NCBI GenBank assembly: GCA_964016885.1
Contig: OZ024743.1
Location: 11,842,001 to 11,906,000 of the forward strand
Length of the DNA: 64,000 nt
DNA from: Eledone cirrhosa
Lineage: Eukaryota
Reading direction: 5' to 3'
The notes beneath the pieces were generated by a model that saw only the letters and a program-made list of their open reading frames with translations, ran no database searches and was not told the origin of the DNA. Below are positions 6,926 to 62,360 of this stretch, in pieces; the first letter of the stretch is position 1, and every line of letters starts with the position of its first letter. Position numbers and translations under genes: made by a program.

Positions 6926-8001
6926 TAATTTTCTTTATACTTTTAGCTCTTGAAAACTCTTAGTTTTGTTTCAAAATTTTAATCCTCTTGCTATTTGTTG
7001 AATGTCTAGTATGATTTCCTTGTAAGATTTAGTAATATATTATATGTAAAAGATCGAAAGAGAACTAAGACATATTTCTATATCATATTAAATGCAAAAT
7101 AAATTGAATTCCATAATTTGTTAGTTGATGAATGTTCTAGTATGATTTTAGTGAATTATTTTCTTTGAAAAAATTGTCATTATGGGAACAAATATGTATT
7201 CAAATATGCAAGAAAGTGTCACCCGTTTAGAGAGCATCAACATTGATACTATTTTGAATTACCGTGGCATGAATTTAGCGGCTAATTTTTATTAGTTAGT
7301 GGTCAAAAGTTTAAATCTCTAATTCAGTAAATATTTATATTCTAGTGAAACAATTATTTCATTCACTTTACATAAGACATATTCAATTCTTCACTTCGAT
7401 GAAATATTTTATCATCTTATAATATACCGCGATTAAGCAGGCAGAACTTTTATAAAGATTTGTCTGTTTCATGTAAATTCAACTTTCAAATATTTCTTTA
7501 AATGTTAACAAGGTAACATACAAAAACCCATTGAAATAATAGACGACCATTGATAACCTGGAAAGATGATTTAAATTTTAAAGCAATCTTAATGCATTGT
7601 CAGAGCTAAAATATGAGACGTTTCCTCGGCCGGGAATAGAACAATGTGTCAAAGCATAGTATGGGTTTAATTAAACACACACACATATATATAAATAAAC
7701 TTCAATCTGTTATTTTAATAAATATTGGGTCTATTGTTCTTATATATTTGATATATATTTATTCTTATCGAGCCCTCTTTGGATTTTGGTCTTCACATTT
7801 ATTATTATTACTATAAATGGGTGTATATATATATATATACTTGGGGAGGGTCATATTGTTCTAATATAGCCAGAAATAATAACATAACACACTCACTGTT
7901 TGGTTGCTTTTCGCTTCTGTATATATATATATATATATATATATATATATATATATATATACGATATTAACAAATGGAAACTATATTTATAAAACCATAT
8001 T

Positions 8002-8066
8002 TATTTCATTATACATATTTCAAGGATACCAAGTTAAATTATGGTATGCCTTCATCAGACAAAATA
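8002..8066 (-). ncRNA. Minimal type I hammerhead ribozyme (left arm)
   Basis: Mirror copy of 13702-13766. Confidence 0.8.
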
Positions 8067-9637
8067 CAATATATACCAGTTTTATAAATAAACATTGACG
8101 TACCCTTTCAAAATGCGATCATTACTTTTGGAAGACATCAGGATAGTGGTTTGTTTATTTTAGTAAGTTGTTGTGTTAAGGAAAAGTAAAAAGACGGAGA
8201 GATGGAGAGAAACGTGGAGAAAAGAAAGGGAGAGATAAATAAAGAAAAAGAAGAAAGAAAAAAAGAAAAAAGAAAAAAAGAAAACAGAGGAAAACAACAG
8301 AGAGATATCAAACCACCAGACAGAGAGAAAAAACTCAAGAGAGAGAAATATAGAGATAGAGAGAGGGGGAGAGAACGAAAACCTTAAGTCATGTCATTTT
8401 AACTTGAGTTAACATTTGAGATGAAATGAATAAATAAAATTAGAAATATTAATATTTATGAATGGAATATACATATATAATATGAGAAATTAATCATTGT
8501 TTAATTATGATTAGATATTTAGTTTAAAAATTGAGATCAATATATTAAAAATTGGAATTTAAACATTACAAAATATATATATTGCTAGAGAAATTACCTA
8601 TCGTATATCACGTACACATAGGCAAAGATACATAAATATATATATACACACACACTCGGAAAAATACACATTATATCTACTCCCGCATATAACATATACA
8701 TACAAAGCATAAGTGATTTGTTTATTACTGCTATACATTCCTTGTGTTATTAAATAACATTTTTTAGTATATATATATAAATATATAGGATTAACTTTCA
8801 TGCATGTATGGCTGTTAAATTATGCATATCTGCAATCAAAACTGCATGGGTAAGCATGTACATGCACACACACAATTCTTAGCTATACATATATAAATAT
8901 GTGTGTGCATCTTCACCCAATTGGTAGACACGCGTCACTCATGCATATATACAGACAGACATATACTCATAAAAAAGCATATAACACATGTATATGTATG
9001 TTAATACACATATATAGATAATAATCGTATAGAGATAAGTATACATCAATATATTACATAGTATAATCGAGTATATAAAATACAAAAGGATTATATTTTG
9101 GAAATATAATTATATCAATATAACTTAAAAGGCAAACGAATTCTACAAATATCAAAATATTAAAATATTTTAAAATATTATAGAATATTTCAAGCTAAAA
9201 TAATATGTTTAATAGATTTAGTATAGAAATTTATCTTACGTATATTTTAATCAAGATATTGAAAGGATTTTGAAAATTATGAGAAGCTATCAGAATAAAA
9301 ACAAACCTAATGAAAAATAAATAAAATATTATATCAATATAACTTAAAAAACAAGGATTCTACAGATATCAAAATATTAAAATATTTAAAAATATTATAG
9401 AATATTTTAAGCTAAAATAATATGTTTAATATATTTAGTATAGAGATTTATCTTATGTATATTTCATTCAAGATATTGAAAGGATAAACTTTTCTAGAAT
9501 AGTTTATTATATTTATATTTATATTTAGGAAGAAAATTTATACTTGAGTACTTAATCAAAGAAAATGAAAAAGGTGAAGGAATCTAATGATTTATCGACA
9601 GATTTCATATATTAACCAAATTACTTAATTAATTAAA

Positions 9638-10880
9638 CTACATTTTAAATTTATATTTATATTTAAATGTTGAGTTCAATCTATGTCTGCAGCAACTGAA
9701 TAAATTATTCCTTAAATTAAGGGAATTGTTGGTCTTTAATATAAAAAATATTTCCTCTATACAAAGATTACAATTTTCTGAAGAGGAGTTAAAAGGAGTA
9801 GCTTTTGAAATAATATTCCAAATCAGCGAATATTCAACATTATCTCGTTTTAGGTCCCATAATAGGCTAGATAGCGAAGTTGAAGATTTTTTGTTTGGAT
9901 CCGTAAAAGAGTTTTTATGATTATTGAAGCGGGATTTAAATTCTGTAGAGGTAGAACCGACATAATTAAATGAATTTAAATTAGTTTTAACATTACAATT
10001 ATAAACTACATTTTTAGCTAAGCAGTTGTTAATTAACGGACAGTTGGATTTATTTCTACAGTTACAATTATTCGATTGGATATTGCTTGGGTTATTATTG
10101 GTATTTTGGTTAGGTTTTAAATTTCTATTATTAATTCTATTAATATTTTGCGCTAAATTTTTGGTGGAAGAGTAAGTTAACTTTATAGTATGTCTATTAA
10201 AAATTGAGTAATATTTATGTGTTCTAGGGAAGCGTTTGTCAAGAGCTTTAAAGAATAGTTTAGCAATAGGGGTTTTAATATTAAGTGAGAAAGGAGGAGC
10301 GAACCATAATATATTCCTAGTTCTATTTCTTTTTCGGCTTTCGGAATTATTGTAATGTTTTCTATTATAGTTGTTAAAATTGTTACCATAATTAAAGTTG
10401 TTATTATTTTGGTTAGTTTGTATATTATTATTATTATCGATGTATTTAATTTTATTTCTATACCTAGCTCTACCTAACGCTTCGTTGTAATAATGCGCTT
10501 TTTCATCAAATATATTCTTATTAGATGAAATTCTTGAAATTCGTTCTTGAACAGAGTTCACTATCGTATTTTTAACGGATCTGGAGTGATTAGAGTTGAA
10601 ATTGACATAATTTAAGTTCTCATTTAGTTTGTGAAATGGATAATGAAGACATGTGTTGAGATTTAGTGTTACATCTAAAAAATTGACTATTTTATGGTTA
10701 TTCTCTATTTCTACTTTTAGATTAAGGTAATTAAAAAATTGTATAATTTGTTTTCTTTTTCTATTTAGTTCACAGCTATTATTTTCTATAAGTAACAGCA
10801 TGTCGTCACGATATAAGCCTCCGGTTACACCTGGTATTTTTCTATGTAGAGAATTAATTATAAATAGGCCCACAAGGTCT
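9638..10880 (-). pseudogene. 5'-truncated PLE ORF: RT C-terminal part plus GIY-YIG endonuclease (Hydra-clade-like)
   Basis: GLYRDD, VNFLDVTLNL, YVNFNSNH, CNCRNKSNCPL..CL, VVY...YVG, R..NH, CNLC..E, LN.R, CCRH. Confidence 0.9.
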
Positions 10881-59970: not shown

Positions 59971-60889
59971 AATATGGTTTTATAAATATAGTTTCCATTT
60001 ATTTAATATCGTATATATATATATATATATATATATATATATATATATATATATATATATATATATATATATATATATATAATATAATCTAATATAATTG
60101 TTTCTATTTAGGCACAAGGCCAGCAATTACCCAGTGCATTACTGGTACTTTATTTTATCGACCCGTGAGGATGAAAGGCAAAGTCAAAATGTAATATAAT
60201 AAAATATAATATAATATATATATATATTTTATATATACATATATATATAATATTTATATATATATATATATATATATATATATATATATATATATATATA
60301 TATATATATATATATATATATACATATATACATATGACTTATGTTTCGTCACTATATATACATATATATATAATATATATATATAACATATATATATAAT
60401 ATATATATATATATTATATATACATATATATATATATAATATATATATATATATAATATATTATATATTATATATATGTATATATATATATAATACACAC
60501 ATATATATATATATAATATAATATAATATAATATATATATATATAATATAATATATATATATTTTATATATACATATATATATATAATATATATATATAT
60601 ATATATATATATATATATATATATATATATATATATATATATATATATATATATACATATATACATATGATTTATGTTTCGTCACTATATATATATATAT
60701 ATATATATATATATATATATATATATATATAATATATATATATATATTATATATACATATATATATAATATATATATATATAATATATTATATATTATAT
60801 ATATGTATATATATATAATACACACATATATATATATAATATAATATAATATATATATATATATATAATATAATATATATATATAATAT

Positions 60890-61311
60890 ATAATATAAGA
60901 TCAAAAGATGGTTAAAGGAGTTCCATATATTTTATTATGTGCATTTCAAAAACAAACATCATCAAGCAATAATATTTGTGTTTTCATCAGATAAAACAGG
61001 AGAACATGATATGAAGGCTAAAAAACACTTGTGGATAGTGCAGTTTTAAATCAACATATCAACATATCAACTGCACTATCCACAAGTGTTTTTTAGCCTT
61101 CATATCATGTTCTCCTGTTTTATCTGATGAAAACACAAATATTATTGCTTGATGATGTTTGTTTTTGAAATGCGCATAATAAAATATATGGAACTCCTTT
61201 AACCATCTTTTGATCTTATATTATGCATACTCCAGTCCCACAAACTGTAGAGTGCTTCTTATCCGATATCTGCATTGCTTTATTGTACTACAATAAAACT
61301 CACCTCCTACA
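60890..61311 (+). mobile_element. Fold-back of a PLE terminus only: arms 60890-61045 and 61069-61224, tail 61225-61311; hammerheads 61116-61186 (plus) and 60928-60998 (minus)
   Basis: tgttttat CTGATGA aaacacaaatattat..atgatgtttgttttt GAAA tgcgca TA ataaaata; same family as the end of the PLE at 53036. Confidence 0.85.
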
Positions 61312-61960
61312 TATAATATATATATATATATATATATATATATATATATATATATATATATAGAGAGAGAGAGAGAGAGAGATAGAGAGAGATAGGGGGA
61401 GGGAGAGAGATAGAGAGGGGAGAGAGAGAGAGAGAGAGAAATTGAGTGAATATCAATATTGGTTCGGTTCTCTGATATAAACAGTTGCTTTCATAACGAT
61501 AAGTAATATAAATCAATAACAATTCCACCAAGCCTATACTGAGAGATACTAGAAATCGAAAGTCTAAACGTATCCATAGATAGAATACGAATAATCAATA
61601 AATATATTCTAATAAAAAAGGTGAAAAAAAATGAGATGTAACCTTTATTTCATTAAAGGAAACATAAAAAAAAGGTGTAATAGGAAAATGAAGGATATTA
61701 GGAAATTACATACGCATAGAATTATATATATATATATATATATATATATATATATATAATTGTTTCTACTTTTGGCACAAGGCCAGCAAATACCCAGTGC
61801 ATTACTGGTACTTTATATATATATATATATATATATATATATATATATATATATATATATATATATATATATATATATATATATATATATATATATATAT
61901 ATATATATATATATATATATATATATATATATATATATATATATATATATATATATATAT

Positions 61961-62360
61961 CCAGGCCGTGTAACTTGGAGTTACTGCAGGTTCACCCGGG
62001 AGAGCACTCGATGTTTAGGTTCACTTCTGTGATGAGGTGTAGAACTATACAGAGTGTAATATATTGAAAGGATAACAAGGACGATTGATTACTCCTTCAT
62101 TGCATTTATTGATAGGTGACGCGCGTTTCGCCACTGATCAGCTCAAGGTTCGATCTGTATCGATCCTACCCGACTCAATAATCGGCGACTCGACGGACGC
62201 TTTTAAAATGCTATAAGAAAATTTTAAAAGGGTCCGTCGAGCCGCCGATTATTGAGTCGGGTAGGATCGATACAGATCGAACCTTGAGCTGATCAGTGGC
62301 GAAACGCGCGTCACCTATCAATAAATGCAATGAAGGAGTAATCAATCGTCCTTGTTATCC
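61961..62360 (-). mobile_element. Fold-back element: tail 61961-62069, arms 62070-62209 and 62221-62360; hammerhead 3' half only
   Basis: gtggc GAAA cgcgcg TC acctatc in the arms; tail reads cactc...catcgagtgctc on the minus strand; (TA)n flanks. Confidence 0.75.

Follow-up and report, generated by a model that had tools for sequence, protein, structure and literature searches.

The window analysed here is a stretch of 64,000 nucleotides of Eledone cirrhosa DNA (assembly GCA_964016885.1, contig OZ024743.1, positions 11,842,001 to 11,906,000). It contains nine insertions, E1 to E9, each composed of two inverted arms joined head-to-head and, at one outer end only, a further segment termed the tail. 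Judged by their sequence, they belong to Hydra-clade families of Penelope-like elements (PLEs). The nine insertions were tested by self-comparison of the window and pairwise alignment of the arms, and all are present at the places given by the original prediction, a reading of the letters of this DNA. The subject of this report is the origin of their two unlike ends, both of which are marked by a bulged hairpin motif that the original prediction did not contain. The features concerned are listed below in window coordinates; hairpins and aligned arm pairs are given without a strand.

7962..10879, minus strand: E1 tail-less arm, the 3' 2.9 kb of a Hydra-type PLE, with its start site 1 end against (TA)n.
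10882..13896, plus strand: E1 tailed arm, ending at start site 2; tail at 13807-13896 (90 nt, right).
7962-10729 and 11039-13806: aligned arms of E1, identity 2760/2768.
13710..13770, plus strand: putative type I hammerhead of E1, from a core match with helices read from the sequence; mirror core at 8018-8058 (minus).
13814..13837, plus strand: copy 1 of the bulged hairpin motif in the E1 tail.
56354..57790, minus strand: E2 tailed arm; tail 56354-56440, motif 56411-56434, hammerhead core 56499-56540.
57791..60012, plus strand: E2 tail-less arm, including an 861-nt loop (3' part of the open reading frame, ORF); hammerhead core 59913-59954.
56441-57790 and 58652-60012: aligned arms of E2, identity 1339/1345; tail 87 nt, left.
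60890..61311: E3 hairpin, arm 156 bp, identity 155/156; tail right with motif 61229-61257; hammerhead cores 60944-60990 (minus) and 61124-61170 (plus).
45056..45444: E4 hairpin, arm 141 bp, identity 140/141; tail 66 nt, right (45379-45444), with motif 45385-45408; hammerhead cores 45100-45121 (minus) and 45313-45334 (plus).
61961..62360: E5 hairpin, arm 140 bp, identity 138/140; tail 109 nt, left, with a long-loop motif at 62002-62055 (minus).
42916..43109: E6 hairpin, arm 57 bp, identity 53/57; tail 79 nt, right, motif 43037-43064.
43117..43313: E7 hairpin of the E6 family, arm 58 bp, identity 51/58; tail 79 nt, motif 43241-43268.
44655..44825: E8 hairpin, E6-related, arm 74 bp, identity 62/74.
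44879..45027: E9, arms of only 18 bp, identity 16/18; tail 74 nt, left.
42822..42906, minus strand: F8, a tail-only fragment of another Hydra-type family; motif 42866-42890.
53038..55982, minus strand: tail-less, 5'-truncated E3-family copy with the 3' part of the ORF.

The 3' ends of both arms face outward, and arm identity ranges from 99.7% (E1, 2768 bp) down to 84% (E8). The predicted set of nine palindromes with a one-sided tail holds for arms and tails in general, but the E8 tail is cut to ~18 nt and the E9 arms span 18 bp; seven of the nine elements combine clear arms with a complete tail of 66-109 nt on one side. Arm length and fold-back point vary as had been proposed, from 18 to 2768 bp and from inside loop II of the ribozyme to the ORF. 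The (TA)n expected on both sides is present around the elements, except that the left flank of E6 has only ~4 TA units and E8 has none on its tail side. The tail-less arm of E1 contains the reverse transcriptase (RT) thumb, the linker, the GIY-YIG domain, the 3' untranslated region (UTR) and the hammerhead. In its tailed arm the N-terminus of the ORF (10882-11038) is fused to the 3' part across an internal deletion, and the real head-to-head joint is 10879/10882. The tail-less end of E5 falls 11 nt short of the fixed end of its family. In E9 the tailed arm is 18 nt, the tail has lost an internal segment and the tail-less arm is longer; this element belongs to a further E6-related family in which, by eye, an inverted tail-less arm accompanies 12 of 19 other tailed copies and none of the 19 has two tails. 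The F8 family is also present at 1908-2300 and 21266-21400, and a tail fragment at ~52971-53012 lies across a TA run from the E3-family copy.

The source genome of the window (3.0 Gb) was searched with element queries for further copies. Each query gave 207-2623 first-look candidates; per search, 40 of them were scored and 20-30 returned. All genome counts rest on these returned samples and on incidental copies lying in their flanks, those for E3 on incidental copies, and the per-family candidates (hundreds to thousands) are lower bounds. Longer genomic copies tie E1/E2, E3, E4, E5, E6/E7 and F8 to ORFs with RT and GIY-YIG, giving parents for the families of seven of the nine window insertions. 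The E3 parent (L170) has an intact, unbroken ORF of 800 codons; the 800-residue product and its relatives can be aligned over their whole length with 10 database proteins. Parent ORFs were also found for E4 (L175, L354, L365), E5 (L163) and E6 (L194, L201, L190/L352). No model in a Pfam search matches the Hydra ORFs, and the domains were therefore read from motifs. The parents have a single ORF with an RT plus a GIY-YIG endonuclease (EN) at the C-terminus, and no N-terminal EN. RRxRW[RTK]A and DKT, the latter replacing DKG, are present in the parents of E1, E3, E4, E5 and F8, and RW and DKT lie in separate frames in the E6 parent. The parents of E1, E3, E4 and E6 share a CxCx5C linker, CxxC and CxH in the EN, and no CCHH; in the parent copy of E5 the linker is altered by a single substitution. 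The RWK-type motif, DKT, CxCx5C, CxxC, CxH and the (TA)n target are Hydra diagnostics in the C-terminal EN+ PLEs of Craig et al. 2021 (PMC8557442, cited here from parts of the article), which likewise have a single ORF of less than 3 kb, a hammerhead in the pseudo-long terminal repeat (pLTR) and partial tandems. Partial tandem pLTRs, an inverted truncated copy and an optional tail are all seen in our long copies (L061, L163, L170 and others), and 358 of 412 mapped ends abut TA. The PLE origin, the Hydra assignment and the (TA)n targeting put forward originally are supported.

Terminal hammerheads had been predicted for the whole set. A complete CUGANGA...GAAA core is found in both arms of E1-E4 only (4/9 elements), but E5 has no core, and in E6-E9, which fold inside loop II, just the 3' half of the family's ribozyme is left. 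Cleavage is predicted ~48 nt before the tail-less end in the E1 hammerhead. In E4, a deletion common to both arms takes out the stem I 5' strand that is present in other copies. The CUGANGA core was not found within the last 230 nt of E5; E5 (62221-62360) and L163 retain GAAA, the palindromic stem III and the GUC half of the hammerhead, and the ribozyme of this family may have another fold or be dead. In the E6-family ribozyme stem II is long and the core has U3/A8 instead of C3/G8 in 27/27 matches, including L194 and other long copies. The pLTRs of the E1/E2, E3 and E4 families are thus predicted to carry a canonical hammerhead, and that of E6 the U3/A8 variant. An Rfam search assigned no family to the window hammerheads. 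A separate hammerhead lies in the 3' UTR region of the E3-family copy (54298-54370, minus), between identical 201-bp direct repeats (54022-54222 and 54491-54691); its match to the Rfam model HH9 is weak (32.4 bits, under the gathering score of 52).

To define the ends at genome scale, 419 element 3' ends were mapped in 747 kb of merged loci, and 7 leader read-throughs were dropped, leaving 412. Read-throughs in L041 and L190, which appeared as two-tail pairs, and in L095, an apparent one-tail pair, were taken out before the final pair count. The ends are bimodal in all six references, with one tail-less and one tailed position, and 165/187 tail-less and 198/216 tailed ends fall within 5 nt of the modal position. 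One tailed and one tail-less end are combined in 125 of 131 head-to-head pairs overall. The proportion is 71/73 among tail-unbiased pairs, which were sampled without tail-biased queries, and 49/50 among incidental pairs. Independent tails would give about half, and the binomial p value against them is 2e-18, calculated on the count of 72/75 before removal of the read-throughs. The tail is on the left in 60 and on the right in 66 of the 126 one-tail pairs. In a forward test on 33 long elements, each having an inverted arm next to the leader, the far end was predicted beforehand from the near end; the opposite end state was found in 27 of 28 scorable elements, the other five having no far end in the stretch. 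The one-tail rule is nearly strict, with both ends at fixed positions, which agrees with the earlier expectation of exactly one tail and a fixed tail-less end. To call the fold-back dominant goes too far: of 163 incidental ends, 100 (~60%) are paired, in 50 pairs against 63 solo ends. The candidate rule that the tail always lies on the shorter arm was ruled out, the tailed arm being longer in 22/126 pairs.

Each fixed end lies ~5-12 nt upstream of a copy of the bulged hairpin motif and begins with TA-like letters. The motif, present in all tails, reads RCUC, an inner stem-loop, a two-base UN bulge, GAGY and RCU. Two copies stand in tandem in the leader, the first (motif 1) within the tail and the second (motif 2) between the tail and the ATG; full-length copies of E1, E3, E5 and E6 run past the tail into the second motif and then the ATG, and motif 2 has a long-loop form in E4 and F8. 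A descriptor scan gave 215 hits against 8-16 in five shuffles, a count that multi-copy families inflate, and found many further sequence families with the motif a few tens of bases upstream of (TA)n. The first pair, left unforced, was A:U in 12, G:C in 7 and other in 9 of 28 clusters. Among 52 distinct inner sequences, the first inner pair was C-G in 30, U-A in 20, U-G in 1 and mismatched in 1. The inner stem averages 2.75 bp versus 0.62 in shuffled sequences (0/500 shuffles reached it), and it is only for a 2-nt bulge that pairing exceeds that of shuffles. Counting the first three pairs of the inner stem, there are 12 G-U/U-G and 5 A-C/C-A. By these sequence comparisons the inner stem co-varies. 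An apparent compensatory change in the E9 motif was rejected as a private deletion.

The motif is also found outside this genome. In a metagenome set of 78 loci of Hydra-type ORFs (64 clusters), 36 have an ATG start and a leader of at least 150 nt. Two or more motifs, 47-83 nt apart, are present in the leaders of 19/33 unrelated families versus 11/746 ORF windows. Of 21 loci with a 3' copy that does not run into a contig end, 15 have it departing from the leader sequence -1 to 13 nt before a motif. An earlier metagenome scan with one protein gave no match. In the metagenome locus L219, the letters upstream of both motif copies form a direct repeat, a hint that the tandem pair arose by duplication. 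In the available consensus file of PMC8557442, the motif was recognized by eye in the tails of Hydra-2_Amil and Hydra-2_Ajap, in two copies ahead of the ATG of Hydra-1_Ajap and, in variant form, in Hydra-1_Crog; published Hydra consensus sequences of a coral, a sea cucumber (the two copies before the ATG) and a copepod (the variant) thus contain it. No Rfam family was found for the motif. Neither the tandem motif nor the strict coupling was found in the literature searched, which did not extend to older subscription papers and several supplements, and the motif is apparently an undescribed cis-element.

The two arms of an insertion are closely related. In the E1/E2 pairs they differ by 0.9% versus 6.0% between loci, the arms being closer in 25/25, and in the E6 pairs by 7.0% versus 10.5%, the arms being closer in 32/39; E4 pairs were left out of this comparison. 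Subfamily columns are concordant in 36-38 of 40 E6 pairs (21-31 expected) and in 16-18 of 19 E1 pairs (9-10.5 expected). Because the arms are closer to each other than to other loci and share subfamily markers, they derive from one source. An E6 allele that seemed arm-specific (18/40 tailed versus 2/40 tail-less arms) proved to be mostly query bias, as it recurs in 1/8 scorable incidental pairs. The head-to-head junctions vary from copy to copy: among 126 pairs the alignments overlap by 1-10 nt in 66 and by more in 7, are blunt in 9 and contain extra bases in 44, a distribution given without a chance control. Small secondary fold-backs occur at some junctions. In 14 of the 126 one-tail pairs the second arm is the tail only, and in incidental pairs the tail-less arm extends further 5' in 26 versus 2. 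The 5' stops cluster by family, near -57 (E6), -161 (E3) and -170 to -187 (E1), and these clusters produce MITE-like size classes (MITE, miniature inverted-repeat transposable element). Three stops coincide with a pyrimidine-A step; transcription starting at the hot spots is only a guess, as long copies rarely stop there. One locus, L348 (G000:C3:4919001-4929000, 2147-7497), is a 5.3-kb palindrome of an already inverted E1-family copy, whose halves have the same private -882/-287 inversion joint and whose outer ends are one tailed and one tail-less.

These observations, namely two fixed ends, their coupling, the same source of the arms and tandem motifs, are best explained by a programmed twin priming, in which two RTs on two tandem hairpins of one RNA use nicks on opposite strands of (TA)n, and we consider this explanation probable. 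The motifs would act as RNA and bind protein, placing two RT subunits on the two hairpins, and the endonuclease would nick both (TA)n strands, so that one start site is primed from each flank. Synthesis of the tail-less arm would begin at the proximal site, with the enzyme at motif 1, and that of the tailed arm at the distal site, with the enzyme at motif 2; at either start the TA primer would be engaged by UA-type pairing over 2-5 nt. The enzyme further downstream might stop early, leaving a tail-only arm in an L1-like inversion, or displace the first complementary DNA (cDNA) and yield a palindrome. The two cDNA 3' ends would then be joined by microhomology and prime each other's second strand, and the stop hot spots at -57, -161 and -185 would yield thousands of short MITE-like hairpins without motif 2. 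Two RNA-templated syntheses primed from both flanks can make tail-only arms as well as longer tail-less arms, and both of these speak for the two priming events on opposite strands proposed originally. The same proposal placed one event at the RNA 3' end, which the data do not require: in full-length copies the sequence continues through the tail into the second motif and the ORF, and both start sites are therefore internal.

Known systems offer partial precedents; the articles compared here are cited from parts of their text. The Poseidon-clade PLE of Anolis, PAc, studied in vitro by Frangieh et al. 2024 (PMC11167929), cuts both strands of an AT-rich target and extends them, uses uncleaved RNA, is a predicted dimer and has two internal RT starts that bound the tail. 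PAc differs in clade and in having its starts in one AC-rich stem-loop within the ORF, with no target homology and no strand preference seen. By contrast, the starts described here lie in the leader, begin with TA-like letters, each precede their own motif and are coupled one per strand. Twin or dual priming of L1 (PMC2837659) likewise involves two RTs at opposite-strand nicks and gives inverted, head-to-head insertions joined internally. L1 inversions, however, are occasional, use poly(A) and a variable internal site, and duplicate no sequence, whereas the elements described here have two fixed sites, and their arms in most cases overlap to form a palindrome. The motif resembles the arginine sandwich motif of TAR and 7SK RNA (PMC6189040), in which a short U-initiated bulge follows a paired purine and precedes a G-A-G strand, a layout reported to form a U-A-U triple and bind arginine. 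The likeness is one of secondary-structure layout only, and by this analogy the arginine-rich RWK region is a candidate partner. An inverted 5'-truncated copy and a one-sided tail are already described for PLEs (PMC3846280, PMC8557442 Fig. 2), in the latter as an inverted copy of Penelope-13_HM and a one-end tail in the legend. The tails there measure 30-40 nt versus 66-109 here, and the available parts of PMC8557442 describe no tandem hairpin motif, tail-asymmetry count or MITE-like hairpin population. What is new is the near-strict one-tail rule and the tandem bulged hairpin at both ends.

Several points weigh against programmed twin priming as set out above. The model is drawn from sequence comparisons, the one-tail rule was assessed in this genome only, and PAc in vitro shows no start-site difference between strands in the available text of PMC11167929. 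The remaining pairs of the 131 have two full tails (three, L016, L120 and L150), no tail (one) or a partial tail (two). L341 missed the far-end prediction, and 63/163 incidental ends have no partner within the stretch examined, some of them maybe paired beyond it. In 9 full-length tailed main copies the tailed arm is far longer than its partner, which speaks against a strict trailing order, and within families the arm lengths of unbiased pairs are not significantly correlated (p 0.08; p 0.44 for incidental pairs). Long copies with the ORF start seldom stop at -185 (~2/30), and short and long products may therefore use different RNA forms. Since the halves of L348 carry the same private inversion, their template may have lacked motif 2.

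The long tailed arms would be accommodated by a different arrangement, in which dual priming occurs on two RNAs of one source locus held in an asymmetric dimer, for example by hammerhead dimerisation, with one subunit per site. Such a dimer would give overlapping arms without strand displacement; PLE hammerheads have been proposed to act as dimers (PMC4209133, where a circular template is also proposed for PLE tandems), dual priming is postulated for L1 (PMC2837659), and the common subfamily markers fit RNAs of one locus. It would need an extra asymmetry for the 71/73 mixed ends, however, which tandem sites on one RNA give directly, and the tail-only arms and the 26 versus 2 longer tail-less arms fit one enzyme following another; we regard it as unlikely, yet the most serious competitor. 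A second alternative has the GIY-YIG endonuclease recognise the motifs as DNA or cDNA; the fixed ends would then arise by cutting while an intermediate is resolved, not by RT initiation. The quoted parts of PMC8557442 suggest that the tail comes from EN-mediated resolution, and PMC11167929 cites earlier work in which the tail is needed for recognition by the Penelope EN. Both PAc ends, on the other hand, map to RT start sites in vitro (PMC11167929), and the excess of G-U/U-G over A-C/C-A in the inner stem leans to folding of the sense strand, which makes this alternative improbable.

Snap-back or self-priming, in which one cDNA folds back and copies itself, had been offered as one possible route and is proposed for rotifer PLEs; the available part of Arkhipova et al. 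2013 (PMC3846280) explains the likewise head-to-head inverted pLTRs of rotifer Penelope, with an optional tail on one, by self-priming on an antisense template. The near-identical arms and the small secondary fold-backs agree with it. Yet the tailed strand would have to contain the whole tail-less arm, and the preponderance of longer tail-less arms and the 14 pairs with no arm sequence in common contradict it as a general route in these families; we give it very little credence in that role, and it may still shape some junctions. We also hold it to be highly improbable that the hairpins are MITEs of DNA transposons that duplicate a TA target, that they were copied from a small number of master palindromes, or that they are artefacts of fold-back in long reads. 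The hairpins are short, high-copy, non-coding and inserted in TA, like such MITEs, and L348 suggests that an inverted copy can be re-copied. The E1 joint is bridged by no independent read or contig among the pieces listed, so that this single locus is not read-confirmed, and E6-E7 is spanned by none of those pieces. Fixed terminal inverted repeats and a fixed length are nevertheless absent, as arm length and fold point vary and one end carries a tail. PLE parent ORFs exist for six families, arms differ by up to 16% in old copies, junctions vary, fixed ends with a one-sided tail recur at more than 100 loci, and independent Illumina data repeat, at the family level, the termini against TA and the tail-only joints. 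No transposase with matching ends was found, although no search was aimed at one. The view that the MITE-looking hairpins are retro-products is supported by the parent ORFs, the one-sided tail and the fixed ends. Non-LTR (long terminal repeat) retrozymes are likewise short, high-copy, non-coding and of PLE pLTR origin in the accessible parts of a preprint (bioRxiv 10.64898/2026.07.22.740005), which do not discuss tails. The window elements are head-to-head rather than head-to-tail arrays, and 5/9 have no full hammerhead core.

Other features of the window lie around these insertions. Further motif copies are found at 14-57 (plus) and 42010-42033 (minus), a tail-less E1-related end with a hammerhead at 41099-41219 (minus) and a Hydra-type GIY-YIG fragment at 45503-45820 (plus); they represent more PLE families in a (TA)n-rich hot spot. 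A palindrome with perfect arms at 21922-22328 belongs to a different dispersed repeat, pieces of which recur at 2785, 15907, 22762, 36529, 36747, 60091 and 61759; the tail motif, hammerhead core and terminal (TA)n are all absent from it. Six tRNA-like copies of Gly type (1363-1433, 5522-5592, 6265-6335, 6855-6925, 15187-15257 and 15800-15870) sit in a dispersed composite repeat in both orientations. An open frame of 1068 codons at 17705-20911 (plus) is a non-LTR retrotransposon (RVT_1, zf-RVT) unrelated to the PLEs, and a 9-kb minisatellite with a unit of roughly 69 bp occupies ~25350-34230.

Among retroelements, PLEs encode the enzymes most closely related to telomerase. The PLE articles cited here have not settled how the tail and the inverted repeats are made, and the cis-element makes the origin of the tail directly testable. 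In its broadest form our proposal is that undescribed tandem arginine-sandwich-like RNA hairpins, conserved across animal phyla, load two RTs on one leader and prime both ends of a (TA)n double-strand cut at once. Twin priming would then be the normal, programmed route, the tail the spacer between the two sites, and the MITE-like palindromes its abortive products; we find this full version about evenly balanced between right and wrong. The motif finds and delimits Hydra families missed by the Pfam and Rfam searches made here, and abundant hairpin repeats, with at least hundreds to thousands of candidates per family, are reclassified as retro-products. With a conserved cis-element at each start, integration could proceed without priming of the second strand as a step of its own, and, if true, twin-hairpin loading would explain both the tail and the inverted repeats of Penelope elements.

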